A DNA stretch of 64,000 nucleotides from Polyangiales bacterium (lineage in GTDB: Bacteria > Myxococcota_A > Polyangia > Polyangiales > Polyangiaceae): NCBI GenBank assembly GCA_038231275.1, contig JBBRLQ010000032.1:1-64000 (forward strand). The letters run 5' to 3'. Below, one piece after another: positions 2,245 to 28,278 of this stretch. A program made the translations under genes and the position numbers. Under the pieces are notes generated by a model that saw only the letters and a list, made by a program, of their open reading frames with translations, had not been told where the DNA came from and did not search any database. The first letter of the stretch is position 1; every line of letters starts with the position of its first letter.

Positions 2245-2307
2245 TCGCGGGATCCTAGCACGCGCTTCATCCTTGTCAGGGCGGAGCGGGCGGGGATACT
2301 GCAAGGC

Positions 2308-7890: not shown

Positions 7891-9276
7891 TCAGTGTCGG
7901 TCCTTGTAATCGCGGGGCTCGATGCCGTGCCGCTCGGTCCACCGGTAGATCTGGTTGCGATCCTTGCCGAAGAACTCGGCCACGCGGGCGACGTTTCCCT
8001 GAAAATGCTGGAGGACCCGTTGCAGGCCGTCGGCGGTCGGGACTTGATCGCGAGGGACCAACGCCTCGATCGGCGGCGCGCTCGCCGTCTGCGGCGACGG
8101 CGGGTGCGGCGGGAGGCGAGACGTCAGCTCGGTCGGCAGGTGCTCGCTCCGCAGCGTCTCGCTCTTCCCCGCGCGCACGACGGCGACGGTGAGGACCTGC
8201 TCGAGTTCGCGGACGTTTCGTGGCCAGTCGTACAAGAGGAGGGCGTGCGCCGCGCTCGGAGAGAGCTTGCCGGTGTGCTCGAGTCGCTCGAGCACGCCAC
8301 GCGTGAGCCGCAAGATGTCGTCGCGACGCTCGCGCAGCGGCGGGACGCGGAGGGTCCATCCGGCAACGCGCGCGAAGAGATCGGCGCGAAAGGACGAGGC
8401 CGCGCCTGTCTCCGGTGAGATGTCGCGGTGGGTCGCGGCGACGACGCGCACGTCCACCAGAATCGCGCTCGCTTTGCCGATCGATCGGACCTCGCCCGCG
8501 GAGAGCGCGCGCAGGAGTTTGGGCTGGACCGCAGGAGGCAGCTCCCCGATCTCGTCGAGGAAGAGCGTGCCCTTGTCGGCGGCGACGAACACGCCCTCGC
8601 TCTTGTGTACTGCGCCCGTGAATGCGCCGGCGGCGTGACCGAACAGCTCGCTCTCCGCGAGGTTCTCGGGGATGGCGGCGCAGTTCACGGGCACCCACTC
8701 GCCGGTCCGCCCGCTCAAGCGATGGAGCTCCTCCGCCGCCCGCTCCTTGCCGGTGCCGGTCTCGCCGAGGATGAGCACCGAGATGGGCTGCGCGGCGACC
8801 ATCGCGATCTCGCCGCGAAGCTTCTGCATCGCGAGGCTCGTACCGCGCAGGCGCGCGGTCTCCGGCTCGAGCCGATCGTCGCCGCGAAGGACGGTGTCGC
8901 TCATGACGAGCAGCGTGCGGCCGATGCGGACGACGGTGCCTTGCGCGAGGTGCGCACGAGCGACGCGCTTGCCGTCGACAAGGGTGCCATTTCGGCTGTT
9001 TTTATCCTCGATCCAGAACGTGTCCGCCGCCGCGTCGTAGGTCACGGTCGCGTGGGAGCGCGAGGCCTCGCTGTCCTCGAGCGAGAAGACGCTGGCCCCC
9101 TCCGGCTCGCGCCCGACGACGACCGACGCGTCGCCCAGCGTGAGCAGCGGCGCGGGACCGCCCAACGGCGCGTACACCACGACGAGCTGGCGTACGCGAA
9201 CGGGGCCGCGGCCGTCGCTCGAGCCCTCGCTCGTCGTCGGACCGGCCGACGTCTCTCCTTCGGACGGGTGTGGCAT
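7891..9276 (-). CDS. FHA-domain sigma54-dependent enhancer-binding protein
   Basis: FHA (VGRE, SRSHA, SRNGT), GETGTGKE, GAFTGA, LFLDEIG, WPRNVREL, HTH. Confidence 0.95.
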   Translation of the reverse strand: MPHPSEGETSAGPTTSEGSSDGRGPVRVRQLVVVYAPLGGPAPLLTLGDASVVVGREPEGASVFSLEDSEASRSHATVTYDAAADTFWIEDKNSRNGTLVDGKRVARAHLAQGTVVRIGRTLLVMSDTVLRGDDRLEPETARLRGTSLAMQKLRGEIAMVAAQPISVLILGETGTGKERAAEELHRLSGRTGEWVPVNCAAIPENLAESELFGHAAGAFTGAVHKSEGVFVAADKGTLFLDEIGELPPAVQPKLLRALSAGEVRSIGKASAILVDVRVVAATHRDISPETGAASSFRADLFARVAGWTLRVPPLRERRDDILRLTRGVLERLEHTGKLSPSAAHALLLYDWPRNVRELEQVLTVAVVRAGKSETLRSEHLPTELTSRLPPHPPSPQTASAPPIEALVPRDQVPTADGLQRVLQHFQGNVARVAEFFGKDRNQIYRWTERHGIEPRDYKDRH

Positions 9277-9317
9277 GCGCCCTCGCGCAGAGTAGCATCC
9301 GTCCGCCGGAGGATGGG

Positions 9318-12143
9318 ATGACAGACGGGCACGACGGCGACGGCGACCGAACGCGTACGGCCTCGCACGCGGGCGACGTGAGCGGGCGAGGGGAGATCTT
9401 GACGGCGCCCGAGGGCACCCCGCTGCGCCGTGACGCCGCGGATCTCGCGCGCCTGCGCGTCGTCCGGCGCGAGGACTACGAGGTGCGCGGCGAGCTGGCG
9501 TCGGGCGGCATGGGAAGGATCCTGGAGGCGTGGGACACGCGTCACGAGCGCCCCGTCGCGATCAAGATGCGCCTCGAAGGGGCGACCGACTCGCGCCGCT
9601 TCGCCCGCGAGATCCACATCACTGGCCGCCTCCAGCACCCCTCGATCGTTCCGCTCTACGAGGCCGGCCGGTGGCCCTCGGGCGAGCCGTTCTTCGCCAT
9701 GAAGCTCGTCCTCGGCGAGTCGCTCGCCCGCGTCGTCGACGGCACGCAATCGTGGACAGAGAGGCTCGCGCTCCTGCCGCACCTGATCGCCGTCGCCGAC
9801 GCGCTCGCGTATGCGCACGAGCAGCACGTCGTTCACCGTGATTTGAAGCCGTCCAACGTGATCGTCGGTGCGTTCGGCGAGACGGTCGTCGTCGACTGGG
9901 GTCTGGCGAAACACGTCGATGATCCCGACGAAGAAGGGGAGTCGGAGGCCCCTCGGATCGGCGAGGACGGCGATCTGACGCAGCACGGGCGCGCGCTCGG
10001 CACCCCTTGCTACATGCCGCCCGAGCAGGCCCGCGGCGACGCAGTGGATCTCCGTGCCGACGTGTACGCGCTCGGCGCGCTCCTCTACCACGTGCTCGCG
10101 GGCGTGCCGCCGTACCGCGGGGATTCGGCCGTAGCGACGCTCGAGAAGGTGCGCACCGCGCCGCCCGTACCGCTCGGAGAGGTGGTGCCCGAGCTGCCGT
10201 CCGATCTCGCCGCGATCGTCACCAAGGCGATGGCGCGCGATCCGGCCGAGCGCTACCCGAGCGCGAAGGGGCTCGCGGAGGATCTGAAACGGTTCGCGAC
10301 CGGGCAGCTCGTCTCCGTGCACGCGTACTCGGCGGGCGAGCTCCTCCGCCGCTGGGCCTCGCGTCGCCGGGCCCCGCTGCTCGTCGCCGCTGCGATGCTC
10401 GCGGTGCTCGCGTTGACCGCGACGATGAGCGTCTTGCGCATCGTGCGCGAGCGCGATCGCGCGGATCACGCCAAAATCGAGGCCGATCGTCAAAGGAGCG
10501 TGGCCGTTACCCAGCGCGACGCCGCCGAGCGCATCGTCGAGTTCGTCATCGGCACGCTGAAGGAGCGTCTCGAACCGCTGGGGAAGCTCCAGCTCCTCGC
10601 CGGCGTCGGGCGCGAGGTCGAGGGGTACTACGACAAGGTGGCATCCGGCGCGGAGGACGTCGACGCCACTGCGCTCGCGCGCCGCGCCGCCGCGCTCCAG
10701 ACCCTCGGGGACGTGGAGGCTCGGAAGCTGGACGACGAGCAAGCCTTGTCGCTCTTTCTGGCGAGCCTGACCATGACCGAGCGCGCGCTCGCGAAGGACC
10801 CGACCAACGTCGACGCGCGGTCGACGCGCGTCTTGGACTTCTTGCGCATCGGCACGGTGCTCCACGGCCGCGGCGAGCTCGATGAGGCGCTGCGCCACTA
10901 CGGGGACGGTGCGCGCGAGGCGTCCAGTCTGGTCGCAGCGCACCCCGAGCTTCCGAACGCGCACGTGCTCGCCGCGAAGATGCAGGCGGGCCTCGGGTAC
11001 GCGAACTACGAGCTCGCCGATCTCGACGCGGCGGACGCGGCCTACGCGAAGGAGGTCGAGGCCGTGCGCGCGCTCGTCGCCCGTGATCCGACCGACGCCT
11101 GGCGTGCGCGCCTCGCGTGGGCGCTCATCGATCGGCAGTCGACGCAGTTCGAGACCGGCCATAGCGCGGACGCGCGCGTCTCTGCTGCCGAGGCGCTCGC
11201 GATTTCCGAAGCGCTCACGACGAAAGATCCTGCGAACAGCGACGCGCTCAGCGTGCGCGCGTGGGCGGAGGGGTTCCTGTCTTCCCTCGAGGGCCATCGC
11301 GGAAACGTCGAGACCGCCGCCCGCATGGGCCTGCGCGCGCGCGCCTCCCGCGCCGAGCTGACGCGCCGCGATCCCGAGAACACCGACTGGCAGCGCGACG
11401 CCCTGAACGCGGCGTACCACGTGTGCCGCACGCAGACCGCCATCGGTCGACCCGACGAGGCGCTGCGCGTGTGCATCCCCGCGCGCGACGAGATGCTGCG
11501 CCTCATTCGCGAGAAGAGCGTGCACTCGCTCGAGAAGGACGTGATCTGGCTCCACACCGAGATCGCCTCCGCCCACGCCGCGCGCAAGGAGTGGGCCCTC
11601 GCGCGGGCGTCCTACGACGCGTGCATCGCCTTCACGGAGCGCGCGAGCAAGGAGGGCCAGGGAGACCTCCAGGTGGGCCGCGATCAGGTCGCGTGCCGGG
11701 AGCGCGCGGCGATGGTCGATCTCGCGGTGGGCAACGTGGCGCTCGCGCAGAGCACCTACGAGGTGGCGCGCGACATGGGTGAGAAAGGCATGCGCGCGCG
11801 GCCGCGTGACATCTACCTCGCGGCCGCCGTGGCGAGGACGCGCGCGCTCGGCGGAGATCTCGCGCTCGCTCGGAAGGATTTCGCCGAGGCGCGGCGCCAC
11901 TTCGACGATGCGCTCGCGCTGGCGACGCCGCTCACCGCGAAAGATCCGGACGTCGTCGAGCTCGCTGCGACCGCCGCCCGCGCGCGCATCGGCGTCGCAC
12001 GGGTGTTGCGCGCGCAGGGGGACGCGGCGGGAGCGCGCGCCGTCGTCGCCGAGGGCCTCGCCGCCGCCGACGCGTGGCGAACGAGCGCGTTCCCCGGGCA
12101 GCGCGCCGTCGTCGAGGTGCTCCTCGTCGAATCGAGGCTGTGA
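9318..12143 (+). CDS. Ser/Thr protein kinase with TM segment and C-terminal TPR-like helical repeats
   Basis: LASGGMG, HRDLKPSN, DWG, GTPCYMPPEQ; TM LLVAAAMLAVLALTATMSVL; helical repeats with DP turns. Confidence 0.93.
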   Translation: MTDGHDGDGDRTRTASHAGDVSGRGEILTAPEGTPLRRDAADLARLRVVRREDYEVRGELASGGMGRILEAWDTRHERPVAIKMRLEGATDSRRFAREIHITGRLQHPSIVPLYEAGRWPSGEPFFAMKLVLGESLARVVDGTQSWTERLALLPHLIAVADALAYAHEQHVVHRDLKPSNVIVGAFGETVVVDWGLAKHVDDPDEEGESEAPRIGEDGDLTQHGRALGTPCYMPPEQARGDAVDLRADVYALGALLYHVLAGVPPYRGDSAVATLEKVRTAPPVPLGEVVPELPSDLAAIVTKAMARDPAERYPSAKGLAEDLKRFATGQLVSVHAYSAGELLRRWASRRRAPLLVAAAMLAVLALTATMSVLRIVRERDRADHAKIEADRQRSVAVTQRDAAERIVEFVIGTLKERLEPLGKLQLLAGVGREVEGYYDKVASGAEDVDATALARRAAALQTLGDVEARKLDDEQALSLFLASLTMTERALAKDPTNVDARSTRVLDFLRIGTVLHGRGELDEALRHYGDGAREASSLVAAHPELPNAHVLAAKMQAGLGYANYELADLDAADAAYAKEVEAVRALVARDPTDAWRARLAWALIDRQSTQFETGHSADARVSAAEALAISEALTTKDPANSDALSVRAWAEGFLSSLEGHRGNVETAARMGLRARASRAELTRRDPENTDWQRDALNAAYHVCRTQTAIGRPDEALRVCIPARDEMLRLIREKSVHSLEKDVIWLHTEIASAHAARKEWALARASYDACIAFTERASKEGQGDLQVGRDQVACRERAAMVDLAVGNVALAQSTYEVARDMGEKGMRARPRDIYLAAAVARTRALGGDLALARKDFAEARRHFDDALALATPLTAKDPDVVELAATAARARIGVARVLRAQGDAAGARAVVAEGLAAADAWRTSAFPGQRAVVEVLLVESRL

Positions 12144-14877: not shown

Positions 14878-16281
14878 ATGGCACGACACGCTTTCGCGAT
14901 CCACCACCTTGACGGCGCGCGCCTTCGCACGGCGGCGCTGCTGTCGATGCTCGCCGTGTCCGCTGCGTGCTCGGGGACGGCGCAAGAGACCGCGGGCGGT
15001 GGTGTGGACGCGGGAGAGGAGATCGACGGGAGTCTCGCCGACGCGGACCTTGGCGACGCGGCCTCGAGCGCCGAGGCATCGACCGACGCCCCGTCGGGAG
15101 GCGACGCCGGACCGGACGCGCGCGGCACTGACATGCCCATCAAATACATCGTGGTGATCGTCAAAGAGAACCACACGTTCGACAACTACTTCGCCGGCTT
15201 TCCGGGCGCGGACAGCAGCCTCACCGCGAAGATGTCGAACGGCAAGGTCATCACGCGCCCTCTGGCTCCCGCGAGCGGTCTCGTGCACGACATCTCGCAC
15301 TCGCACACGTCCGCGATGACGGCGTTTCGCGGCGGCGCGATGGATGGCTTCGATCTGGTCGCCGGTGGCAACTTTGGGAACCCGCCCGACGAGATGTCCT
15401 TCATCCGCTACTCCGAGGCCCAACTGCCGAACTACTGGCAGTACGCCCGTCACTTCGTGCTCGCCGATCACTTCTTCTCGTCGACGTTCGGGCCGAGCTT
15501 CCCCGGGCACTTCGCGGTCACTGCGGGCTTCAACGTCTCGCTCGACAACCCCACGTGCTCGTGCGGCGGGACCTGCACGGTGTCGGTCTTCGATCCGACG
15601 ACGTGCACGATCAGCCAGGCTCCTCCGTGCTGGACCGCGCCGTCGATCGTCGAGGAGCTGCCGACCGGCTTCACCTGGGCCGAGTACGGCGTGCCGACGC
15701 TGAAGAGCATCAAGTCGGTGAGCGCGCTGCCGAACGTCGCGGCGAATTTTCGAACGCGGACGCAGTTCAACGCCGACATCAAGGGAGCGACCCAGCCCAA
15801 CCTGATGGTCCTCCACGTGCAAGGTGCCGTGAGCGAGCATCCGCCGGCGATCGGGACGACGACGCTCCACATTTGTCCGGGAGAGAACGACTCGGTGTCG
15901 ATCTTGAACGAGATCATGAGCGGTCCGCACTGGAACGAGACCGCGGTGCTCCTCTCGTGGGACGACTGGGGTGGGTTCTACGACTCGGTGAAGCCGCCCG
16001 CCGCGAAGTGCGCCAACGGGGACTACATGACACCGGGGTTCCGCCTCCCGCTGATCGTGATGTCGCCGTATGCCAAGCCCGGCTACGTGCTGAAGACGGT
16101 CACCGAGCAGACGTCGATCGTTCGGCTGGTGGAGGATCTCTGGCACCTGCCGAGGATGCACCCGCGTGACGCGCGCATCCACGACGACACCGTGGGCAGC
16201 CTCCTCGGGGCCTTCGACTTCACCCAGGCGCCGCTCCCGCCGCTCGTCTTGCCGGCGCGCGACTGCACCGGGCAGCCGTGA
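14878..16281 (+). CDS. Phosphoesterase / phospholipase C family lipoprotein
   Basis: IKYIVVIVKENHTFDNYF, GPSFPGH, SEHP, WDDWGGFYD, GFRLPLIVMSPYAK; lipobox SAAC. Confidence 0.9.
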   Translation: MARHAFAIHHLDGARLRTAALLSMLAVSAACSGTAQETAGGGVDAGEEIDGSLADADLGDAASSAEASTDAPSGGDAGPDARGTDMPIKYIVVIVKENHTFDNYFAGFPGADSSLTAKMSNGKVITRPLAPASGLVHDISHSHTSAMTAFRGGAMDGFDLVAGGNFGNPPDEMSFIRYSEAQLPNYWQYARHFVLADHFFSSTFGPSFPGHFAVTAGFNVSLDNPTCSCGGTCTVSVFDPTTCTISQAPPCWTAPSIVEELPTGFTWAEYGVPTLKSIKSVSALPNVAANFRTRTQFNADIKGATQPNLMVLHVQGAVSEHPPAIGTTTLHICPGENDSVSILNEIMSGPHWNETAVLLSWDDWGGFYDSVKPPAAKCANGDYMTPGFRLPLIVMSPYAKPGYVLKTVTEQTSIVRLVEDLWHLPRMHPRDARIHDDTVGSLLGAFDFTQAPLPPLVLPARDCTGQP

Positions 16282-16297
16282 TCGGGGCAGCCGTCGA

Positions 16298-17248
16298 TCA
16301 CAAAATGCGCTTCAAAACAGCCGGATCGGCGTTTCCTCCGCTGACCACGCACACGACGCGCGCGCCGCCTTGGACGTGGACCGCCTTCACGAGCAGCGCC
16401 GCGTAAGCCGCCGCGCCGCTGGGCTCCGCGGCGAGCTTCGCGCGCTCCATCACGAGCCGGAGCGCCTGCGCGATGTCGTCCTCGCTCACGCGGACCATCT
16501 CGTCGACGAACGCCTTCACGTGCCGGAGGTTGTGTGCGCCGGCGAACGGGGCGGCGAGGCCGTCGGCGATCGTCTTGGGGTACGCGATGTGGAGCGGCTC
16601 TCCCTTGGCGAGGCTCTGCGTCATGACGTCGGCGGCGAACGGCTCGACGCCGATCACCTTGGCCTGTGGGCGTAGTGCTTTGATCGCCGCGGCGACGCCG
16701 CTGATGAGGCCGCCGCCGCCGACGGGGACGATCACCACGTCGACGTCGGGGACGTCCTCGACGATCTCGAGGCCCAGGGTCCCGTGTCCGGCGATGACCT
16801 CGAGATCGTCGAAGGGGTGAACGAACGTCATCTTCCGCGCGCGTTCGATCTCGCGCGCCGCCTCGAGGACGCTCGCGCCGGTGAGGACCACTTCTCCGCC
16901 GTAGCCTCGGGTCGCCGCGATCTTGGTCGGCACCGCTCCCTCCGGCATCACGATGACGGCGTGCGTTCCGCTGGCCCGCGCCGCGAAGGCGAGCGCCGCC
17001 GCGTGATTCCCAGCCGAGCACGAGACGAAGCCGCGCGCGCGCTCCTCCGGCGAGAGCGAGAGCACACGATTGAAGACGCCGCGCACTTTGAACGATCCGG
17101 TCTTCTGGAACAGCTCCGCCTTCAACGACAGGCGCACGCCCACCATGTCGCCGAGCGCCGTCGCCGAGAGCATCGGCGTGCGGTGGACGCGATCGCCGAT
17201 CCGCGCGCGCGCGCGCTCGATGTCGGCGAGACCGACGAGCTCGCTCAC
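16298..17248 (-). CDS. PLP-dependent threonine/serine dehydratase
   Basis: KAELFQKTGSFKVRG, SAGNHA, VPVGGGGLISG, EPSGA, SGGN. Confidence 0.95.
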   Translation of the reverse strand: MSELVGLADIERARARIGDRVHRTPMLSATALGDMVGVRLSLKAELFQKTGSFKVRGVFNRVLSLSPEERARGFVSCSAGNHAAALAFAARASGTHAVIVMPEGAVPTKIAATRGYGGEVVLTGASVLEAAREIERARKMTFVHPFDDLEVIAGHGTLGLEIVEDVPDVDVVIVPVGGGGLISGVAAAIKALRPQAKVIGVEPFAADVMTQSLAKGEPLHIAYPKTIADGLAAPFAGAHNLRHVKAFVDEMVRVSEDDIAQALRLVMERAKLAAEPSGAAAYAALLVKAVHVQGGARVVCVVSGGNADPAVLKRIL

Positions 17249-17715
17249 GGCGCGCGCTCGGTCAGCGCGAAGATCGCTTCCACCTCGACGGCGATCCCGG
17301 CGGGCAGACCGACGGTGCCGACCGCGCTGCGCGCCGCGAGGCCGGCGTCCCCGAAGACCTGCACCATGAGATCGGAGAAGCCGTTGATCACCTGCGGGTG
17401 GTCCGTGAACTCCGGCGTCGCGTTGACCATGCCGAGGACCTTCACCACGCGCGCGACGCGGTCGAGCGAGCCGAGCTGCGCGCGCACGGTGGCGAGGACA
17501 GCGAGCGCCGTCAATCGCGCGGCCTCCTTGCCGGCGGCCACGTCGAGATCGGCCCCGAGCCGGCCGGTAACGTACGACCCGTCCACGCGGAGCGGCCCGT
17601 GCCCCGACGTGTAGAGCGTCCGCTCATGAACCACCGCGGTCGCGTAGGTGGCCATCGGCGCCGGCGTCGGCGGCAGCGTGAGCTTCAGTGCGGCGAATCG
17701 CGCTTCGTGGGTCAT
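17245..17715 (-). CDS. RidA/YjgF family imine deaminase
   Basis: LYTSGHGP, VINGFSDL, ARSAVG, VEVEAI; 4-bp overlap with the dehydratase. Confidence 0.92.
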   Translation of the reverse strand: MTHEARFAALKLTLPPTPAPMATYATAVVHERTLYTSGHGPLRVDGSYVTGRLGADLDVAAGKEAARLTALAVLATVRAQLGSLDRVARVVKVLGMVNATPEFTDHPQVINGFSDLMVQVFGDAGLAARSAVGTVGLPAGIAVEVEAIFALTERAP

Positions 17716-17744
17716 CCGCGCGTCTTACCCGCCCGCCGCCTCTG

Positions 17745-19751
17745 TCACAAGGCCGCATGTCCGGCTAGCCCCGCGAGCTCTGCGCGCAACGTGTCGATGC
17801 GTGTCTGGAGATCGTTGTCGAGCTGCGCGCTCCGTTCGAACATGAGGTCCAGCGCGGCGCTCACGTCGGCGAGGGGCGCCTTGCCCTTGCGGAACAGGCG
17901 AATCGTGTCGCCGTAGAGATCGCGGTGCAGCGTGTCGTGAACGATCGCCGCGGCGATCGCCTGGATGTCCGTCCGGTCAGGCGACATGAGCTCGAACGCG
18001 CGAAGGGCCTCGGCCTGCGTCTCTTGGTCCACGTTGTGCACGCGACCGACCGGCGAGGTGAGGACCGCGACGACGCGCGCCCGCGACGCCGGCGTGTCGT
18101 ATTTGCGGAGCGCGTTCAACGCCGCGGTCCGTGTCTCACGAGCGTCGTCGTCCGAGAGTCGCAAGAGGAGCGCTTCCTGCGCCGGCACGCCTGCGTTGCC
18201 GAGCGCCGTGATGTACGCGATCTTGGGAGAGCGTTTGCGCTCGTTGCTCTGGCTGCTCTCGTCCATTTTCTCGACCAAACGCCGACAAAGTCGCTCTGCG
18301 CCGTCGAGCCGCCGCGTCTGCATCATGTGCCCCGCGACGCTGCCGAGCGCGAACACGCTCGCCGTGCGCAGATCTTCGCTCGCCTGATCCTTCGGAGGGT
18401 CGGCGTGAAGGCGTTCGAACGTGTCCTGTGCGAACGCCACTGTCGCGTCGCTCGGGCTGCGGACGAGCGACACGCGTTGATAGAGCGAGACGTACTCCGG
18501 CAGCGCGCGCGTCCGCGGATCGCGGAGGCCTCGCACGAGCGCCTCCTGCACGACGTCGTTCCCTGCGCTCGCGAGGATGTCGAGCGTGAACGCTCGCCCT
18601 TCGTACGTCATCTTCGGCTCGTGGAGCGTCTCCACGAGCTGCGCGCCGATCTCCGGGTGCAGCTTGAGGAGGCCCGTCGCCCGATTGAAGAACTTCAGCT
18701 GATCGGGCGCCGTCGGACCGAGCACCGCCACCGCTCGCACGTGCGCGACGAGGCCCGCGGCGGTCAGCCCCTCGATCCGATCCTCGACGGCGCGTCGCTC
18801 CTCGGCGTCGTCGATCGTCTGCTCCCACGGCGCGTGCGCCGCGAACGTCGCGAGACGCGCCGGCGGTACTTCTCCTTCGCTGCTCCGACCTTCCTGAAGG
18901 TGCAGCGCAAAGCCATGGGTGGTCTCGAGGGCCGCGCTCCCGTCGTCGCCCTTCGTGAGACGCAGCGTCTCGGTGTCGGTCAGCTGCGAGAGGACACCGT
19001 CGGAGCGAAACGCGAAGAGCGCGCCCGAGTCGAGCTCTTGGCCGAAGTTCGCGAGATCGGTCCCCGGCGGCAGCCCGACGACCTGCGTGTACGCGACGCG
19101 CGCACGGTAGATCTGCCCGTCCGGCCGCAGCTCGTACTTGGTGCTCGCGGTGCCGAACGGCGTCGTCTCGGTCACGACCATGTCATGCCCTGTCGCCGCG
19201 TCCGCGCGCGCGTGGAGCATGACGCCGACGATGCGCTGCACGAAATTCTGGAAGCCCGGCGGCGCGTCGTCGGGGAAGCGGATCGATTGAAGCGCGCCGT
19301 CCGGGTGGACGACGAGGTACGCCGTACGACCCGCGAGCTGCTTCGCGAGCACCGCGCTCATCTGCGTCGACTTCGCGTCCTTCGCGAGCGGCCGCAGATC
19401 GTCGATCGACAGCGCGAGGACGCCGAGCCCGTCCCTCGGCACCAGGGCCGCGAACCGCAACGCCCCGCCGAGCCCGAGCGCGCCGCCGCCGAGGAGATCC
19501 GGCGTATTCGCGGCGCCGAAGAGGTGGTTCTCGGCGGAATGGCTCCACGTGAACCGGTAGGTCAGCACCTCTCCTTGCTTGGGCGCCGCGCGGAAGAGCG
19601 CTCCGTGGCGCGTCCCTCCGGCCAACGATGCCTCGGGGATGTGCGCGGCCGTGGACGTCGCCACTCCCTCCGGCGCGCTGCGCACGCGAAGTCCGTAGAA
19701 GACGACGAGGAACGCCGCCGCGCCGCCGAGGAGCCACCGCACCGCGTTCAT
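17745..19751 (-). CDS. Membrane-anchored protein with beta-rich N-domain and HEAT-like helical domain; resembles vitellogenin/MTP lipid-transport N-terminal module
   Basis: N-terminal TM; ETTPFGTASTKY; LDILASAG..QEAL, VFALGSV, YITALGNAG, RTAALNALR. Confidence 0.75.
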   Translation of the reverse strand: MNAVRWLLGGAAAFLVVFYGLRVRSAPEGVATSTAAHIPEASLAGGTRHGALFRAAPKQGEVLTYRFTWSHSAENHLFGAANTPDLLGGGALGLGGALRFAALVPRDGLGVLALSIDDLRPLAKDAKSTQMSAVLAKQLAGRTAYLVVHPDGALQSIRFPDDAPPGFQNFVQRIVGVMLHARADAATGHDMVVTETTPFGTASTKYELRPDGQIYRARVAYTQVVGLPPGTDLANFGQELDSGALFAFRSDGVLSQLTDTETLRLTKGDDGSAALETTHGFALHLQEGRSSEGEVPPARLATFAAHAPWEQTIDDAEERRAVEDRIEGLTAAGLVAHVRAVAVLGPTAPDQLKFFNRATGLLKLHPEIGAQLVETLHEPKMTYEGRAFTLDILASAGNDVVQEALVRGLRDPRTRALPEYVSLYQRVSLVRSPSDATVAFAQDTFERLHADPPKDQASEDLRTASVFALGSVAGHMMQTRRLDGAERLCRRLVEKMDESSQSNERKRSPKIAYITALGNAGVPAQEALLLRLSDDDARETRTAALNALRKYDTPASRARVVAVLTSPVGRVHNVDQETQAEALRAFELMSPDRTDIQAIAAAIVHDTLHRDLYGDTIRLFRKGKAPLADVSAALDLMFERSAQLDNDLQTRIDTLRAELAGLAGHAAL

Positions 19752-19758
19752 CGGCGTC

Positions 19759-20433
19759 TCAGGTCTCGACGGCCGTGCACTGCTGGATCTCGCCCGAGCA
19801 CTGCTTGACGATCTTGGGAGGACGGCAGGTCACGACGCCGCCGCGCTCGAACGGCTGGCACAGCCACTCGCGGAGGTGGCTGGGGCAGAACATCGTCGTC
19901 CCCGCCTCGGCTTTGCACCCGAACGCCTCGAGCCGCTTCTTCGCTTGCGCGTAAGGGATCTTGATCGCGAGCGACTTCCAGAGATCCGCCGACAGGTCCG
20001 AGCACGTGCTGGCAGCGCGCTGCTCGGGGGAGGTCGCCTCCTTCGCGCCGCACCCGGTCGGGTAGTCACGGGCGTTCGTCGCCGCGCACGCGTCGACTTT
20101 GCCGGCGGTCAGCATCTTCATGCACGCAGGGACGCCGGCCGCCGGGCATTGGTATCCGTTCCCGTACCCGATCGCCGCCATTGATCGACAGGACGCGCCG
20201 CGGATCAGCGTGTCGTCGATCTCCTTCATGAGCGCCGCGTTCGACAGCGCAGCCTTTCCAGAGAAGTCGTAGTCGCCGACGCTCCCGATGATCCCGGGGT
20301 TGGCGCCGGGGTTGCCGGTGGGGACAGGCGCCGGCCCTGGCTTGTTCTCTGCGTGGGCGAAGAACGAGGCGGTCGCTGCGGAGAGGAAGAAGAGGAGCGA
20401 TGCCACGCGCGTGATCGTCATAGGGCCTCTCAT
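19759..20433 (-). CDS. Small secreted Cys-rich protein
   Basis: Signal peptide (FFAHA-EN), 12 Cys; ATGA overlap with the stop of the upstream giant gene. Confidence 0.8.
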   Translation of the reverse strand: MRGPMTITRVASLLFFLSAATASFFAHAENKPGPAPVPTGNPGANPGIIGSVGDYDFSGKAALSNAALMKEIDDTLIRGASCRSMAAIGYGNGYQCPAAGVPACMKMLTAGKVDACAATNARDYPTGCGAKEATSPEQRAASTCSDLSADLWKSLAIKIPYAQAKKRLEAFGCKAEAGTTMFCPSHLREWLCQPFERGGVVTCRPPKIVKQCSGEIQQCTAVET

Positions 20434-23400
20434 TGATCGAGCTTCCATCCGGAGGACACGAGATCGCGGACGGCCTGGGCAGACTGAGCGACGCTCGCGT
20501 CGACCTCCTGAATCGCGAAAATCGGCGTGGTGCTCGTGATGCCGTCCCAGTGGAACAGCTCCGCCTCCGCCGACCAGAGGAGGATCTCGACGAAGCCCGA
20601 CACGGTGCCGGAGAGCGATGAGAGCGTGAAGTCGAGCCCCTGGTTCGCCTCGAAGCGGTTGCCCGCGCTCTTCTTGGCGTTGCCGCCGCCGTCGAAGAAC
20701 TGCACCGACGCGTTCGAGTGGTACGGAAGCCCCATGCGAATGAGCGTGAGGCTCCCCTTCACACCGACCTCGAGGCCCGGCACTCCGATCGCCACCGACA
20801 CGTTGCCGTCGATCTGCGCGTACGGCTCGATGATGTTGCTCAGTTGGAACGGCGTCCGATCGGCGGGCTTCGCCGTGTGCAGGCTGAGCGAGTCCACGTT
20901 GGGCCGGTCGAGCGACGCCGAGATGACGTAGTTGACGCCGGCGTGGAACGTCGCCCACCCGCGTATCGTCACCGGCACGATCACGATCACCACCGTCGTC
21001 GAGTCGTCGAAGAGCGTCTTGTCGTACGAGGCCGGCTCGAATTTGTAGAGCGGCTCGGTCGACGCGTACACAGTCGGCATCACCGCCTTGTTCACCGGCT
21101 CGAAGAGATCGTCACCGACGACGCGGAAGTGCAAGTGGCCCTGGACGATGCGGGCCTTTTCGCCGCCTTGCGCCTTGGCGTGCTCGGCCTGGAACGTGTC
21201 CTTGATGCCGTTTTTCTCGTTCACGTAGTCGCGTCCGCCCGACACCTGGCCGGTCAGGTACTTCTTGTCGGTCGGCGTTGCCCCTTGCTGCAAGTCGAGC
21301 AGGTGACCGTCGGTGAGCGCGATGTCCATGCGCGCGTTGAAGACCTCGTTGGTGGTCCCCAGGATCTTCACGGCCGCAGTCGCGTAGTTGCCGGCCCAGT
21401 ACGTGAAGTTGTCGGAGTTCCCATCCGGCTTGTTCGAGTAGCCCGCGTTCTTGTCGGTCGAGAGGTTGCCGAAGCGGAAGCCGCCGCCCGCGCCGTACTC
21501 CGCGCCGAAGAGATCGCTGCCGAAGCTCCCGTCGGTCGACGTGATCTGCCCGAGCGCCGGCGTCTTGCCGTCCTCGTCGTACGCCTGCATGGCGATGATC
21601 GACGAGACCTCGTCCTGCATCTGCTTGATGATCTCTTTCTCCGCCTCGAGCAGGAGCGCCTCGAACGCCTTCACGCTCTTGCGCGAAGTGTTCCAGTTGT
21701 GGCCGGTGCTCTTGATGAGATCGTTCAGCTTGTTCTTGTACGTGAAGGCGCCCTTGGCGTGCGTGGTGTACCGCTCGCAGCGCTGGGCGTCGGCCTCGCG
21801 CGCCCTGTTGATCTCCTTCCGGTAGGCGTGGCTGAAGTCGATGAGGCGGCTCGGCGACCAGTCGCAGCCGTTCTGGCTCGCGCCGAAGCACCCGAGCTCT
21901 GCGCCGGCGCCGAGCTGCTCGTAGACGAGCGCGTCGATCGCCTCGAGCTTCGGGAGGATGTGCGTCTTCAGCGCCGTCGCGACGGTCTGCGCCTCGCCCG
22001 CCGACAGCGCCGGCGGCATGAACTGGATCGCGTTCGGATCGGCGGGGACTCCGGTCCCTTGAAAGAGCTTCGCGATGCCGAACTGAACGCACTGCACCTC
22101 GGCGTCGTGCGCGGACCGAACGAATGCCGCGTGCCGATCGGCGTTGATTTTGGGCAGATCGGCCTTGTACTGCGTCGCCGCGTCGAGATCCGACTTCACG
22201 TGCGCCGCCCGCACCTGCATCTCGCCCGCGGTGACCGGCAACGGCCTCACCGGGCACCCGATCTGCGAGTGGCACGATAGACCATAGAACACGAACGGGC
22301 CGTACTCGCCGTTCGGGCTGTACTGCACGGCCCACCCGGTGTTCGGCAGCGAGGGCCCGGTGAAGATCGTCTTCGCCTTGGTGATGGGATCGCTCATCTC
22401 CCACCCGCGGCTGATGCCCGCCTGGACGAGGATGGGATCGACCTCGTCGTACCACTTCTTGGTGTAAGGCAGCGTCGCGTCGCCGGTCAGGAGCGCAGAG
22501 TACGTGATGAGCTTGGTGTAGATGTTCTGCTGCGCCGAGGTGTTCGGCGGTGGAAGGGGCAAGGGCTCGGTCTGCTTGCGGCAGGTGGTGCCGACGTTGC
22601 GGATGAAGGTCGTGATCTCGTTCCGCCGCGCGAGCAGGGTCTGCAGATCCTGTTGGCGGTCGTACCGGATCCGGAGCTCCTCGTCGGTGTAGTGGCCCGG
22701 GCGATCCTCCGCGTCCGTCTCCCAGAGCGCGCCGTTCCTTTGCTGGTGCCAGGCGAACGTCTCGTTGATCGTGGGGCTGTCCTTCGCCGTGAACGGCCGG
22801 CGCGTGAAGAGCTCCTGGTTGAAGAAGATTTCGCTCTTCTTCTGGTAGTCGTCGAACGCCGTGATGATCGGCGGATAATTGAGGACGTCGGGGAGGCCGA
22901 GCGAGGGGAAGCGGAGCGCCTTTCCGATCTGCGATTTGGCGTACGGATCCCAATCGTAGAACGTCCGCGAGAAGCCGGCGGCGGCCTGGAGGAACGCGTT
23001 GCGCGGCTCCTTGATCGGCGTGAACGGCAGCGGCGCGGCCGGCGTGACGACGATGTTGCCCAACACGTCCTCGGCGGCGGTCGACGCGGTCGTGGAGACC
23101 TGGCCCTCGGAGTCCCTGACCTCCGCCTTCGCGACGATCGACGCCCACTTCGGCGAGAAGACGAGATCGTAGGTCTTGCGTGGATCGCGCTGGTTGGCGC
23201 TGACGTCGTCGTCGAACTGCGTGAGCGAGAGGTACTTGCGCGCAGCGTACTCGTCGCAGCTGTCGATGAGACCGCCGACGTCGCCGCTCGCGGAGAGCTG
23301 CGTGATGCGCGGGAGCTTCTTCAGCGCGGCCTGCATGTGGGTCAGCTTTGGCGGACGTCCGCCGATCGCCGAGGCCACCGCGAGGCGCGCCGCGGGATGG

Positions 23401-23945
23401 GCGAGGCGCGTCGCGAAGGCGTGGTCCATCCCGCCGACCTTGACCTTGGCCGGATCGTATTTGACGAAGCCGGTCTGCTTCGAGTCGGTGCCGAGCGAGC
23501 GGCGTGACGGGACGACGCGGCGCGCCTTGGGCACCGCCTCGAGCTCCGCTTTGTGGGCTTGGTAGAACGCCTGGCCGCAGTTGCTCCCGGTCGGCGGGCT
23601 CGCCGCGCACGCGTCGAGCTCCTTCCACGATTTGCACGCCGGCGCCGCGTTCGGGCAGCGCGTGGCGAAGGTCGGATCGGCACACGCCGTCTTTTCGTAG
23701 TTCTGGCACGAATCGACGATGGCGCCGGGCGCGCGAACTTTCGGCCCACGCCCGCCCGGCGGAGGGCTCCTGCCCACGCGCGAGTCCCACGTTTGCGGCA
23801 GGCCCGTCTTCGCGTCGAGGACGCGCAGATCGCCGGGTGCTGCGCTGGCGTCGGTCGCGACGGCGAACCCGCCCGCGCAGGCCGCGGTGACGGAGGCCAG
23901 CCAGAGGTGTCGCCAGGTCGGCCGCCGCGCGTGACTTCGTGTCAT
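20430..23945 (-). CDS. Large secreted protein (1171 aa), Cys motifs and long C-terminal amphipathic beta-sheet region
   Basis: GAGGAG RBS before ATG 23945; signal peptide; strong GC3 bias; C-terminal strands TTVVIVIVPVTIRGWATFHAGV...LEVGVKGSLTLIRMGLP...LSSLSGTVSGFV. Confidence 0.88.
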   Translation of the reverse strand: MTRSHARRPTWRHLWLASVTAACAGGFAVATDASAAPGDLRVLDAKTGLPQTWDSRVGRSPPPGGRGPKVRAPGAIVDSCQNYEKTACADPTFATRCPNAAPACKSWKELDACAASPPTGSNCGQAFYQAHKAELEAVPKARRVVPSRRSLGTDSKQTGFVKYDPAKVKVGGMDHAFATRLAHPAARLAVASAIGGRPPKLTHMQAALKKLPRITQLSASGDVGGLIDSCDEYAARKYLSLTQFDDDVSANQRDPRKTYDLVFSPKWASIVAKAEVRDSEGQVSTTASTAAEDVLGNIVVTPAAPLPFTPIKEPRNAFLQAAAGFSRTFYDWDPYAKSQIGKALRFPSLGLPDVLNYPPIITAFDDYQKKSEIFFNQELFTRRPFTAKDSPTINETFAWHQQRNGALWETDAEDRPGHYTDEELRIRYDRQQDLQTLLARRNEITTFIRNVGTTCRKQTEPLPLPPPNTSAQQNIYTKLITYSALLTGDATLPYTKKWYDEVDPILVQAGISRGWEMSDPITKAKTIFTGPSLPNTGWAVQYSPNGEYGPFVFYGLSCHSQIGCPVRPLPVTAGEMQVRAAHVKSDLDAATQYKADLPKINADRHAAFVRSAHDAEVQCVQFGIAKLFQGTGVPADPNAIQFMPPALSAGEAQTVATALKTHILPKLEAIDALVYEQLGAGAELGCFGASQNGCDWSPSRLIDFSHAYRKEINRAREADAQRCERYTTHAKGAFTYKNKLNDLIKSTGHNWNTSRKSVKAFEALLLEAEKEIIKQMQDEVSSIIAMQAYDEDGKTPALGQITSTDGSFGSDLFGAEYGAGGGFRFGNLSTDKNAGYSNKPDGNSDNFTYWAGNYATAAVKILGTTNEVFNARMDIALTDGHLLDLQQGATPTDKKYLTGQVSGGRDYVNEKNGIKDTFQAEHAKAQGGEKARIVQGHLHFRVVGDDLFEPVNKAVMPTVYASTEPLYKFEPASYDKTLFDDSTTVVIVIVPVTIRGWATFHAGVNYVISASLDRPNVDSLSLHTAKPADRTPFQLSNIIEPYAQIDGNVSVAIGVPGLEVGVKGSLTLIRMGLPYHSNASVQFFDGGGNAKKSAGNRFEANQGLDFTLSSLSGTVSGFVEILLWSAEAELFHWDGITSTTPIFAIQEVDASVAQSAQAVRDLVSSGWKLDQ

Positions 23946-24002
23946 GAATCTCCTCGACCCTCGCCGGCGTCGTGCCTGCGAGTCGTGCAAACGGCTCGCT
24001 AG

Positions 24003-24018
24003 AGCAAGGCCGGTGCCG
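24003..24018 (-). promoter_or_regulatory. Putative sigma54 promoter for the 23945-17745 operon
   Basis: Minus strand CGGCACCGGCCTTGCT, close to consensus YGGCAC-N5-TTGCW. Confidence 0.7.
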
Positions 24019-24084
24019 CGCGACGATTTCCTGCGTTTCGGTGCCGCGAGGGTCGTTCAGTGCGCTCGAAGTGAATCGCGTGCG

Positions 24085-24597
24085 CTAGCGATCGCGCACG
24101 ATCGCCCGACGGGACCGCCGGCGTGACACGAGCAACAAGAGGAGGAGGGCGCCTGCGCCTCGGAGGGAGCCGGCGTCGGCATCGGTGGTTGCGCAGCCCG
24201 CACATCCGCCGCGTGCACGCTCGGCGGGTGGAGCCGCAGACGCCTGGACCACCGGAGCGGGCAGCGGCGCCGGCGACTCGAGGCGAGGCCGCTCCGCGGC
24301 GCACATGGGGCACGCCTCGCGCACACGGCGTCGCGCGTCGTCGACCTTGCCGCGCGCGTCGTCGCACGCGGGACCGGGGGAGAGCACGCAAATGCGATCG
24401 GCGGCGCGCTGCATGGATCCGAGCGCGCGGCACGCCACCGCGCAGTCGCTGGTGGAGAGCGCCGCGTAGTCCTGCGCGAGCTGACGCGTCAGATCGTCGC
24501 GTTCACGCGCTTCGCCCTCGGCCGACGTCGGCGCCGCCACCGCGCCCGCCGAAGAGAGGAAGAGAAAGGACCCTACGAGCCACCCCGCGCCGCGCAT
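24085..24597 (-). CDS. Secreted Cys-containing protein with MYXO-CTERM-like sorting tail
   Basis: Signal peptide; C-terminal GGCAGC...GALLLLLLVSRRRSRR. Confidence 0.7.
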   Translation of the reverse strand: MRGAGWLVGSFLFLSSAGAVAAPTSAEGEARERDDLTRQLAQDYAALSTSDCAVACRALGSMQRAADRICVLSPGPACDDARGKVDDARRRVREACPMCAAERPRLESPAPLPAPVVQASAAPPAERARGGCAGCATTDADAGSLRGAGALLLLLLVSRRRSRRAIVRDR

Positions 24598-24609
24598 CCA
24601 ACGAGTTCA

Positions 24610-25389
24610 TCACTCTGCCGGCGAAAAGACGAGCGGATAGACGACCCACACCATCTTGTCGCCCGACGCGGAGAACGAGAGGTTCATGAATCCACGGACG
24701 ACGCACGCGACCACGTCGGCGTCTCCGAGATCGGATCCTGCGTCAGACGCGCGCGTCACCGTGCCAGTCCCGTCGATCACGAACTTGACGGCGACGCGGC
24801 CCGCGAGCCTCGGGCGACGGCGAAGCCCCGCCTCGTAGCAGACGCGGAAGCCCCCGTAGTGGGCGGTGACGACGCGCTTGATCGTCTCACCGGGCACGCG
24901 GCCGATCGACCTCGCGCCGGGCAGGCGCGCCATGACGTGCGCGCGACTCGTTCGCGGATGGCCGTCGAACGCGTCCAGATCGAACGCCGCGTCTCCTTTT
25001 CCGATCGTCGAGACGGTGGCGAGCGGCGCGGCCGGTCCGTCGTCCTCGTCGTCGTGATCGCGCACTTCGATCGGCCCATCGACGATGGATGAGGCCCACG
25101 GCACTGCGCCGGCCGGAGGGTCACGGCTCCACGGGCTCGGTTTCACCTTCGCCGCGCCATCGCGGCTGGACGACAGGAGGGCGAGCATTCCAAACGCCGC
25201 GATCTCCCGCTTGAGCTCCGCGCGGAATCGCGCTTTCGCCTCCTTCTCGGCAGCCTCATTCGCCGCGGTCTCGGTCGCCGAGAGAGGTCCGCTCTTGGCC
25301 GCCGCGGCGTCGTCGGCGCGCGCGATGCCGGGTGAGAGCACCAGCGCGCAGATCAGCGCGCACGACGTCGGCGAAGACGCGAGGGTCAT
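24610..25389 (-). CDS. AgmX/PglI C-terminal (TonB-C-like) domain protein
   Basis: IKRVV...FRVCYEAGLRRRPRLAGRVAVKFVIDGTG...VVACV...VVYPLVFSP. Confidence 0.85.
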   Translation of the reverse strand: MTLASSPTSCALICALVLSPGIARADDAAAAKSGPLSATETAANEAAEKEAKARFRAELKREIAAFGMLALLSSSRDGAAKVKPSPWSRDPPAGAVPWASSIVDGPIEVRDHDDEDDGPAAPLATVSTIGKGDAAFDLDAFDGHPRTSRAHVMARLPGARSIGRVPGETIKRVVTAHYGGFRVCYEAGLRRRPRLAGRVAVKFVIDGTGTVTRASDAGSDLGDADVVACVVRGFMNLSFSASGDKMVWVVYPLVFSPAE

Positions 25390-25400
25390 GCATGGGCCAT

Positions 25401-25416
25401 CGCAATCGGCGTGCCC
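25401..25416 (-). promoter_or_regulatory. Putative sigma54 promoter
   Basis: Minus strand GGGCACGCCGATTGCG, near-consensus, 11 nt upstream of ATG 25389. Confidence 0.65.
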
Positions 25417-26406: not shown

Positions 26407-27246
26407 TCAGCGAAGGACCTGGCCGACGACGACCTCGACGCGATCGCGATGACGGAGCCGCCCGCCCTCTTCGGCGACATGCCCGACCGCCGGGAGGTCC
26501 GCGCCGAGGAAGCGACGCCCGTGCGCCGCGAAGACCGCGGGATCGCCGCTGCACAGGACGCGAAGGGCACCATCGCCAGGCGTGTCATAGTGCGGATGCC
26601 GGACGAGCCACTCGCGGAGGCGCGCGGCGAGGTAGGGCGCCGGGTCGAGGACCTTTGCGCGCGTCGCTCGCTCGAAGGCCGCAGCGAGGAGCGGGTAATG
26701 CGTGCACCCGAGGAGCAGTGTGTCGACGTCCTCGAGCCCCTCCATGTAACGCGCGACCGCTTGCCGTGCGATGTCGGTGTCCTCCCAGCCCTCTTCGACG
26801 AGTGGCGCGAGCAAGGGCGCGGCGCGCTGCGTGACCTTGTGCGTTCCCAGCTTCCGGATCTCCGTCTCGAACGTCCCCGACGCGACCGTGCGCGCGGTTC
26901 CGATCACGCCGATGTGACCCGCGCTCGCCGCGACCGCGACCTCTGCTGCCGGGATCGTCACGCCGAGCACACGCCGCGCGTCGCCCGGTCCGGCGTAGCG
27001 CGCTTGCAGATGGCGAAGCGCGACGCACGAGACCGTGTTGCATGCGACGACGACGAGGCGGCACCCCTCCTCGAACAAACGCTCGGTGCACTGCTCGGCG
27101 AAATCGAGCAGGGTGCTCGTGTCGCGCCCGCCATACGGCGCGCGCCCCGAGTCGCCGAGGTAGATGAAATCGCGCTCCGGCAGCGCAGCGCGCAGCTGAC
27201 GAAGGACCGTGAGCCCGCCGAAGCCCGAGTCGTAGACGCCGATCAT
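26407..27246 (-). CDS. murI: Glutamate racemase
   Basis: IGVYDSGFGGLTV, PYG, VACNT, LGCTHYP. Confidence 0.97.
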   Translation of the reverse strand: MIGVYDSGFGGLTVLRQLRAALPERDFIYLGDSGRAPYGGRDTSTLLDFAEQCTERLFEEGCRLVVVACNTVSCVALRHLQARYAGPGDARRVLGVTIPAAEVAVAASAGHIGVIGTARTVASGTFETEIRKLGTHKVTQRAAPLLAPLVEEGWEDTDIARQAVARYMEGLEDVDTLLLGCTHYPLLAAAFERATRAKVLDPAPYLAARLREWLVRHPHYDTPGDGALRVLCSGDPAVFAAHGRRFLGADLPAVGHVAEEGGRLRHRDRVEVVVGQVLR

Positions 27247-27276: not shown

Positions 27277-28278
27277 TCATCGAATCCACAGCTTGGTGTC
27301 GCCGGTCTGTGAGAGACCGCCCTTGGGCTCGGTGGTGTCCTTCACGCCGGCCCATCCGCCGCCGTTGCCGTTGCACGAAGTCTGTCCCGACTGGGTCCCG
27401 CCGTAGTACGCGCCACGCCCGACCCAGCTCGCGCTATTGCACCCGCAGCCCGTGTTGTTGTCGTCGAGCGGCACGACCGCCCAGCTCGTGTCGCCGGGCT
27501 TGATGTTGTTGTCGTGGGTCGCGACGCAGAGCTTGCCGCCGCCCGCCGAGCTCAGCCACCCCGACAGACGCGCGTCGTTCGTCGAGGTCTGAAGCAGAGG
27601 GACTGCGGTGTTCACGACGTTCGCGAAGAGATCGAAGCTGCCCGGACGGGTGAAGCGCACGTACGACGTGGCCCAGTCGACCCACACGTCCGTGTAGAGG
27701 CCGAGGAAGCGAACCCCGATGAGCCCCGATTGTCCGCCCGTCGCGATCGCGTTGGTGTTGCCGGTGTCGACGTCGAGGAAGCGGAACGTCCCCATTCCGC
27801 CGCTGATTTCTCGCCCGATCAGCGTCCAGCCGCCGCCGTCGATGGTCATGTCGCACCAGACTTGGAAGGGCGCCTTCGGCCCCACGCCGTCGGGGTCTAC
27901 GGTGTAGAGCCCGCTCGTGACGGGCGGCGGCGTCGTCGCGAGGATCTGCCTGCAGGTCGCCGCCGGCGGACAGCCTCCGACCGGGCACGCGTCGAACGGC
28001 GTCGTGTCGGTGGCGACGTCTTTGAGCGGTGCGTCGGCGGCAACGGCGCCATCGTCGGCGTCGAAGTCAGAGGCCCCGTCGCCCCCGGCGTCTACTAGAG
28101 GAGTCGTCCGGTCGACCGGAGCGTCGGTGGACACCCCGGGACCCGCGTCGTCGGGTCCGTCGCCGGTACCCACGAGATCGAGCCCGCACGCGCCTGCCGA
28201 CGAGAAGAAAAGAAGGGCCAGCGGCGGGAGGAGGACTGCCGCGCGACTGTGGCTCGCTTCTTTCGCTCTTCGGCGCAT
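27277..28278 (-). CDS. Lipoprotein with fibrinogen-like (YCDxxxxGGGW) domain
   Basis: TCRQIL...SGLYTVDPDG...VWCDMTIDGGGWTL; AGAC lipobox; DA-rich linker. Confidence 0.85.
   Translation of the reverse strand: MRRRAKEASHSRAAVLLPPLALLFFSSAGACGLDLVGTGDGPDDAGPGVSTDAPVDRTTPLVDAGGDGASDFDADDGAVAADAPLKDVATDTTPFDACPVGGCPPAATCRQILATTPPPVTSGLYTVDPDGVGPKAPFQVWCDMTIDGGGWTLIGREISGGMGTFRFLDVDTGNTNAIATGGQSGLIGVRFLGLYTDVWVDWATSYVRFTRPGSFDLFANVVNTAVPLLQTSTNDARLSGWLSSAGGGKLCVATHDNNIKPGDTSWAVVPLDDNNTGCGCNSASWVGRGAYYGGTQSGQTSCNGNGGGWAGVKDTTEPKGGLSQTGDTKLWIR

Follow-up and report, generated by a model that had tools for sequence, protein, structure and literature searches.

A predicted bacterial relative of the barrel-plus-helical module of large lipid transfer proteins is encoded beside a separate strand-rich partner in a myxobacterium

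Large lipid transfer proteins (LLTPs), namely MTP, apoB, and vitellogenin/lipovitellin, are described as animal proteins whose emergence is tied to multicellularity (PMC12214520; PMC13540394), and MTP, found in eukaryotes, is viewed as the oldest member of the superfamily (PMC6717300). The MTP large subunit (PDB 6I7S and 8EOJ), the smallest LLTP, begins with a beta-barrel that has an internal helix, continues with a helical domain of two layers, carries two lipid-binding beta-sheets, called A and C, in the same chain, and pairs with a second protein, PDI, in a heteromer. In MTP and lipovitellin, a pit of the barrel houses the A-sheet, both sheets are held in the clamp of the helical domain, and a disulfide of the barrel is conserved across LLTPs (C174–C194 in MTP, C156–C182 in lipovitellin, and C186–C212 in apoB; PMC6717300). 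Here, we analyzed a 64,000-nt stretch of DNA (hereafter the window) from the Polyangiales bacterium contig JBBRLQ010000032.1 (GCA_038231275.1), in which three genes of the minus strand, hereafter A, B, and C (letters unrelated to those of the sheets), follow one another closely. On the evidence of profile searches and of a predicted structure, the 668-aa protein C is a genuine bacterial relative of the LLTP barrel plus helical-superhelix module. It is also the constant half of a conserved two-gene module, whose other half, encoded by the adjacent gene in most loci, is a partner with a variable front and a shared C-terminal end, the A5 domain.

A first-pass annotation of this stretch had described C as a beta-rich N-terminal domain followed by helical repeats, and the motifs that it quoted (ETTPFGTASTKY, LDILASAG, VFALGSV, YITALGNAG, and RTAALNALR) are all present in the translation. 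C matches the Pfam family Vitellogenin_N (PF01347) with 25.6 bits (cut-off 24; E 5.8e-6), residues 370–553 aligning with positions 342–525 of the 590 of the profile, a match that covers the helical part only. Among 60 representatives of the C family, 35 match this profile at E ≤ 0.01 and 20 reach its cut-off, the best with 44.9 bits, and automatic Pfam matches for C-family proteins are already present in the database. As a control, five generic HEAT-repeat proteins (HEAT_2 140–777 bits) gave only one hit to Vitellogenin_N, which spans 45 residues and scores 14.9 bits, and C itself scores 25.9 bits against HEAT_2 (PF13646), under the cut-off of 27.7. The best PDB sequence match of the C-family profile is MTP, with YITALGNAG aligned on YLLALKNA, a weak match (E 0.049).

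The AlphaFold model of C, computed with 16 relatives in the alignment (mean pLDDT 82.7; pTM 0.53), comprises 11 strands and two internal helices (residues 61–290), then about 20 helices (residues 315–667). LLTP barrels are built of 11–13 strands around an internal helix and are directly followed by a two-layer superhelix of about 17 helices, and both features are found in this predicted model, whose barrel and helical domain are of a size similar to those of MTP. When the model was compared with the PDB using Foldseek, ranks 1–11 were all occupied by LLTPs, including MTP (6i7s, E 7.6e-17, 653 aligned columns), apoB (9bd1, E 2.2e-13), lipovitellin (1lsh, E 1.2e-12), honey bee vitellogenin (9enr, E 1.8e-10), and the apoB barrel alone (9bd8, E 1.6e-8), the first non-LLTP row being a designed repeat protein (E 6e-6). 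The model and the Foldseek ranking thereby uphold the description given in the first-pass annotation, with a barrel of the vitellogenin/apoB type preceding the helical domain. With LLTPs filling the top ranks and the HEAT controls mostly unmatched, they also speak against C being made of generic HEAT repeats with no barrel. Bacterial HEAT-repeat proteins, the usual automatic name in such cases, do resemble C in having a helical half of HEAT-like repeats, but C differs from them in its N-terminal LLTP-type barrel and its Vitellogenin_N match.

The family to which C belongs is large and divergent. A profile search of 1.84 billion representatives returned 893 C-family proteins at E ≤ 0.001, of which 606 also pass 1e-10 and 182 pass 1e-30; most of the best 150 of these 893 have lengths of 600–650 aa and align over their full extent. 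Only 18 clusters are close relatives (≥52% identity), and a source gives two database relatives the name “HEAT repeat protein”. Over 80 members, residues G518 and N519, in the ALGNAG motif, hardly vary, and 74 of 80 C relatives carry an N-terminal hydrophobic segment, as do A, B, and C alike. By this segment, and according to the hydrophobicity heuristic on which the word “exported” rests for all three proteins, C is predicted to be exported or membrane-anchored. Thirty-two of 251 sampled Myxococcota genomes encode the C family at E ≤ 1e-20, often in 2–5 copies, and among 251 genomes from the phylum of one Desulfobacteraceae carrier, only that carrier does so at the same threshold. The present genome holds four full-length copies of C, and since these are only 21–32% identical to one another, its four A–C pairs must be old.

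These pairs became apparent when an A profile was searched against this genome: it matches exactly four open frames, each of which adjoins one of the four C copies (three upstream and one downstream). Likewise, in a second, related myxobacterial genome, four of the five C genes adjoin an A gene. Across 28 distinct C loci that we fetched, which do not form a random sample, an adjacent A5 domain was detected at E ≤ 1e-4 in 21, all four copies of this genome among them; in 20 of these it ends 18–781 nt upstream of C on the same strand, and in the remaining one A lies directly downstream. This pairing holds across sequence identities of about 20%. In the 251 sampled Myxococcota genomes, a tally made by hand, with only two candidates per genome scored in the A search, classified 18 genomes as having both A and C, one as having A alone, and 14 as having C alone; C is therefore present in 18 of 19 A-carrying genomes, when A is present in one of the 219 genomes without C. 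In loci from 12 of the 14 “C only” genomes, which belong to the 28 above, the more sensitive A5 profile finds the domain at the end of the frame just upstream of C in nine cases. Six of these nine upstream frames are giants of >1,600 to >2,500 aa with Laminin_G_3 domains, three of the six also carrying Dicty_CTDC repeats and one Somatomedin_B. The A and C genes thus co-occur widely, as the proposal of the first-pass annotation required.

The two halves also diverge jointly. The distances between A5 domains correlate with those between their C neighbors (Mantel r 0.925, reached in none of 5,000 permutations), although this correlation is driven largely by three close pairs and relatedness inflates such tests, and nearest neighbors agree in 10 of 12 cases.

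The surroundings of individual members offer further observations. In two Desulfobacteraceae loci (L004 4657–9066, plus strand; L006 5312–9712, plus strand), the C homolog follows an HlyD-type gene and one frame of 1469 or 1466 aa, respectively, that encodes an AcrB-type RND pump and an outer-membrane factor (OEP) domain in a single chain. In the related myxobacterial genome, an A ortholog (L026 8821–12381, minus strand) and a remnant of B together with C (L001 9553–11983, plus strand) lie on separate contigs of 105 kb and 262 kb, so the module can be split without the loss of either gene. Finally, L027 (2936–15766, plus strand) contains an unpaired A-family gene that has two acyl-CoA dehydrogenase genes on one side and a series of sulfotransferase, KAS III-like, TPP-enzyme, and B12/radical-SAM genes on the other, surroundings that possibly represent a lipid or secondary-metabolite cluster.

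Protein A itself is matched by no Pfam or NCBIfam family at E ≤ 1. In a wide alignment of A relatives, cysteines of the front part are invariant, a CDWSP motif is visible, and about 200 residues at the C-terminus form a conserved block, which defines the A5 profile and is the sole part common to all partners. The first-pass annotation had placed the sheet module on the 1171-aa protein, a proposal that now has to be narrowed to these last 200 residues or so, the remainder being variable. Its mention of long amphipathic beta-strands at the C-terminus is, for its part, corroborated by the family-averaged beta hydrophobic moment of A5, which exceeds 0.45 in 12.6% of 11-residue windows versus 1.3% in shuffled sequences, a level reached in none of 500 shuffles. 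The structure model of A is of low confidence (pLDDT 40.7) and predicts long amphipathic C-terminal hairpins; fold searches with this model returned nothing significant, and in the ESM Atlas the C-terminus of A and the relative P0024 fell in unnamed clusters only. A complex prediction combining residues 50–668 of C with residues 800–1171 of A scored 0.00 with an uncertain fold of the partner, and speaks neither for nor against binding.

A barrel-helix module that has no sheets of its own and is encoded right after an amphipathic, strand-rich domain suggests an assembly of the partners in trans. Having computed the homology of C, the pairing of the genes, and the correlated divergence of A5 and C, we infer three further things, namely that A would bind C physically, that the C-terminus of A would fold as a sheet, and that the cargo would be lipid. 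Under this scheme, C would clamp the strand-rich A5 domain in trans, as the N-terminal modules of LLTPs do in cis with the A and C sheets of their own chain, and the A5–C pair would form a hydrophobic pocket for lipid or other hydrophobic cargo at the cell envelope. By analogy with LLTPs, that an A5–C complex holds hydrophobic cargo at the envelope is the account that we tentatively favor, at a likelihood that falls somewhat short of even.

Several observations weigh against this account. On the side of C, whole-model Foldseek TM-scores are low (0.26–0.36, with a root-mean-square deviation of 21–23 Å) and, together with the pTM of 0.53, leave the arrangement of the domains uncertain: relative to apoB or lipovitellin, the orientation of the domains in the model either differs or is uncertain. 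Compared with the apoB100 beta-alpha1 and lipovitellin N-modules (9BD8, 9BD1, 1LSH, and 9ENR), whose curated Vitellogenin_N cut-off it reaches, C is 10–14% identical in sequence, and it has neither the open beta-sheet nor the vWD or other C-terminal domains of apoB and vitellogenin. Unlike MTP, C contains a single cysteine and hence no barrel disulfide, and it ends in helices at residue 668, the in-chain A and C sheets of whole LLTPs being absent. A search of longer proteins for a fused barrel-helix-sheet chain gave generic HEAT giants only, which is weak evidence; three long open frames around C homologs (1345, 1550, and 1696 aa), considered as fusions, are explained instead by frame overlap or by a gene on the opposite strand. 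On the side of A, Pfam searches with two distant and eight further relatives gave no matches, and PDB sequence searches with A profiles gave nothing relevant among six weak matches at E ≤ 1 for A2 and no match at E ≤ 10 for A4 and A5. In addition, the A5 core has about 8–9 predicted strands in some 200 residues versus 12 strands in the two sheets of MTP, and the fronts of the partners vary and look adhesin- or lectin-like (Laminin_G_3, Cys repeats) rather than like lipid carriers. As for the pairing, seven of the 28 C loci have no adjacent A5 at E ≤ 1e-4 (one of them, L033, has a weak match at E 0.014), and in the two Desulfobacteraceae genomes C follows the RND pump operon with A elsewhere in the genome. 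Lastly, no lipid-metabolism genes were found consistently near the module loci. The notion of a split LLTP on two polypeptides, put forward in the first-pass annotation, hence finds support in its barrel/helical half and in the co-occurrence of the genes, and its sheet half remains a candidate, searches with the sequence and with the low-confidence model of A having given no match to the sheets of LLTPs.

Part of this evidence could equally be read in terms of protein rather than lipid handling: C would be a membrane-anchored clamp that holds, folds, or displays large adhesin- or lectin-like proteins via their shared C-terminal domain, the LLTP fold serving as a scaffold with no lipid involved. 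Such a role would fit with the extracellular-type and variable fronts of the partners (Cys-rich here, with 15 Cys; Laminin_G_3, Dicty_CTDC, and Somatomedin_B in giants of >2,300 aa), with the restriction of the shared part to the last 200 residues or so, with the N-terminal hydrophobic segment of most C relatives, and with the envelope-protein neighbors found here, one having an AgmX/PglI or TonB-C-like tail and one a MYXO-CTERM-like tail. There is also a precedent in MTP, whose barrel and helical domains bind other proteins, apoB and PDI (PMC6717300). However, the shared A5 domain is beta-amphipathic, as expected of a lipid-facing sheet. To our knowledge, moreover, every characterized LLTP N-module works with lipid-binding sheets, and we consider a lipid-free clamp to be unlikely, while keeping it as a serious competitor.

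Another possibility is that A would be a secreted pore-forming or membrane-disrupting effector whose C-terminal beta-hairpins insert in target membranes, with C acting as its carrier, its chaperone, or a self-protection factor. The host is a myxobacterium, a member of a predatory group, long amphipathic hairpins are predicted at the C-terminus of A, and the best Foldseek rows for A fall on gasdermin, MAC/C9, and a CDC-like protein in their pore forms. Yet these rows are insignificant (E 0.12–1.0) and come from the low-confidence model, PADLOC gave no matches for A, B, or C, no toxin or defense family was matched, and the occurrence of up to five paralogous pairs per genome, at 21–32% identity, would suit a housekeeping envelope module equally well, all of which makes an effector role improbable. 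That the three genes would be chance neighbors, C being merely a HEAT-repeat protein that shares an operon but no function with A and B, has the HEAT_2 score of C in its favor and is highly improbable in view of the LLTP-only top ranks in Foldseek, of the one weak Vitellogenin_N match among five HEAT controls, and of a pairing that persists across about 20% identity (21 of the 28 loci), with joint divergence.

The coordinates of the module are given in table 1. As stated in the first-pass annotation, three tightly coupled genes encode proteins of 1171, 224, and 668 aa: the stop of A and the start of B overlap as ATGA, and B and C are separated by 7 nt. The open frame of A extends to a TTG at 23990, when its relatives start at ATG. 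With 12 cysteines, against 15 in A and one in C, B recurs in the closest loci only (L002, E 1.4e-66; a remnant in L001, E 9.6e-8). Judging from its sequence distribution, B is a lineage-specific Cys-rich accessory outside the core module, and the three-gene system initially proposed is to be reduced to two genes. The possibility that B is a copy of the Cys-rich N-terminus of A was rejected (hhalign probability 0.7%).

Table 1. Features of the A–B–C locus, in coordinates of the window.
Feature	Coordinates	Strand	Description
Sigma54-type -24/-12 core GGCAC-N5-TTGC	24004..24017	-	About 57 nt upstream of the gene A start
Shine-Dalgarno GAGGAG	23950..23955	-	4 nt before the gene A ATG
Gene A	20430..23945	-	1171 aa from ATG; hydrophobic N-terminus, Cys-rich front, long predicted helices, strand-rich C-terminal domain
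A5 domain of A, residues ~955-1171	20433..21083	-	Conserved amphipathic strand-rich C-terminus common to all partner proteins
Gene B	19759..20433	-	224 aa, 12 Cys, signal-like N-terminus
Gene C	17745..19751	-	668 aa, 1 Cys; predicted bacterial homolog of the LLTP N-terminal barrel-plus-helical module
C residues 2-23	19683..19748	-	N-terminal hydrophobic helix (putative signal peptide or membrane anchor)
C residues 53-310	18822..19595	-	Predicted beta-barrel domain with internal helices
C residues 315-667	17751..18809	-	Predicted helical repeat domain, ~20 helices; holds the Vitellogenin_N match (370-553) and the ALGNAG motif

Regarding regulation, a near-consensus sigma54 promoter had been reported upstream of A, and the core is indeed present: GGCACCGGCCTTGC at 24004–24017 combines GG at -24 and GC at -12 with the consensus spacing, upstream of the first gene. 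Two GGCAC-N5-TTGC sites occur in the window versus 0.33 expected, but because two are also reached in 7 of 100 shuffles, the core is weak evidence by itself. The strict motif is found at only two of 11 module promoters, which sets a limit on the proposal beyond this locus. At the orthologous locus L026, GGCAT-N5-TTGC, with one mismatch, lies just upstream of the A start codon, and one-mismatch sites are common by chance there (3 found versus 5.39 expected). A sigma70 scan of positions 16000–24700 gave no promoter-like site, and terminators were at chance level. From its sequence, transcription of the module probably starts here at a sigma54-type promoter. Two FHA-domain sigma54 activators and a Ser/Thr protein kinase are encoded 8–16 kb from the module (window 1660–3648, plus strand; 7891–9276, minus strand; 9270–12143, plus strand).

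Upstream of A, a 170-aa protein (24085–24597, minus strand) has GCAGC, then a hydrophobic stretch, then an Arg-rich tail at its end, and scores 18.7 bits against MYXO-CTERM (cut-off 20); a similar C-terminal tail precedes the A ortholog in L026. Next comes a 259-aa protein (24610–25389, minus strand) with an AgmX/PglI C-terminal domain (70.3 bits) that is also TonB-C-like, and the second GGCAC-N5-TTGC site of the window (25402–25415, minus strand) lies 13 nt upstream of its start. Further out, a protein with a fibrinogen-like GGGWT domain (27277–28278, minus strand) and an Asp/Glu racemase-family gene (26407–27246, minus strand) form a pair that is also found, with equal lengths, upstream of the A ortholog in L026. 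On the other side, RidA-family and threonine/serine dehydratase genes (16298–17715, minus strand), which overlap by 4 nt, start 30 nt after the C stop in the same direction, and may either share a transcript with the module or constitute a metabolic pair of their own.

Set beside MTP, the module shares a barrel-plus-helix protein and the involvement of a second protein. It differs in being bacterial, in a C protein that stops after the helical domain and is predicted to be exported or anchored via its N-terminal hydrophobic segment, and in a candidate sheet domain, A5, that is carried by a separate protein encoded upstream and has no detectable similarity to the sheets of MTP. We found no paper on bacterial LLTP homologs or on this two-gene module in the full-text literature that our search covered, subscription journals lying outside that coverage. 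A bolder interpretation, that the A5-domain/C pair functions as a lipid transfer protein in two pieces from which the LLTPs of eukaryotes evolved, appears doubtful to us at this stage. If it were true, a (myxo)bacterial envelope module would be the ancestor of MTP, apoB, and vitellogenin, its two genes having become one chain, and the origin of the LLTP superfamily would shift from animals to bacteria. In any case, a large bacterial barrel-plus-helix family whose conserved partner is encoded separately would open the origin of the superfamily to testing, and a two-piece system would be a simple setting in which to dissect how an N-module clamps its partner. For myxobacteria, which carry up to five copies per genome, the module points to an envelope function, possibly lipid handling, and suggests that a protein machine thought to be specific to animals may exist in two pieces in bacteria.

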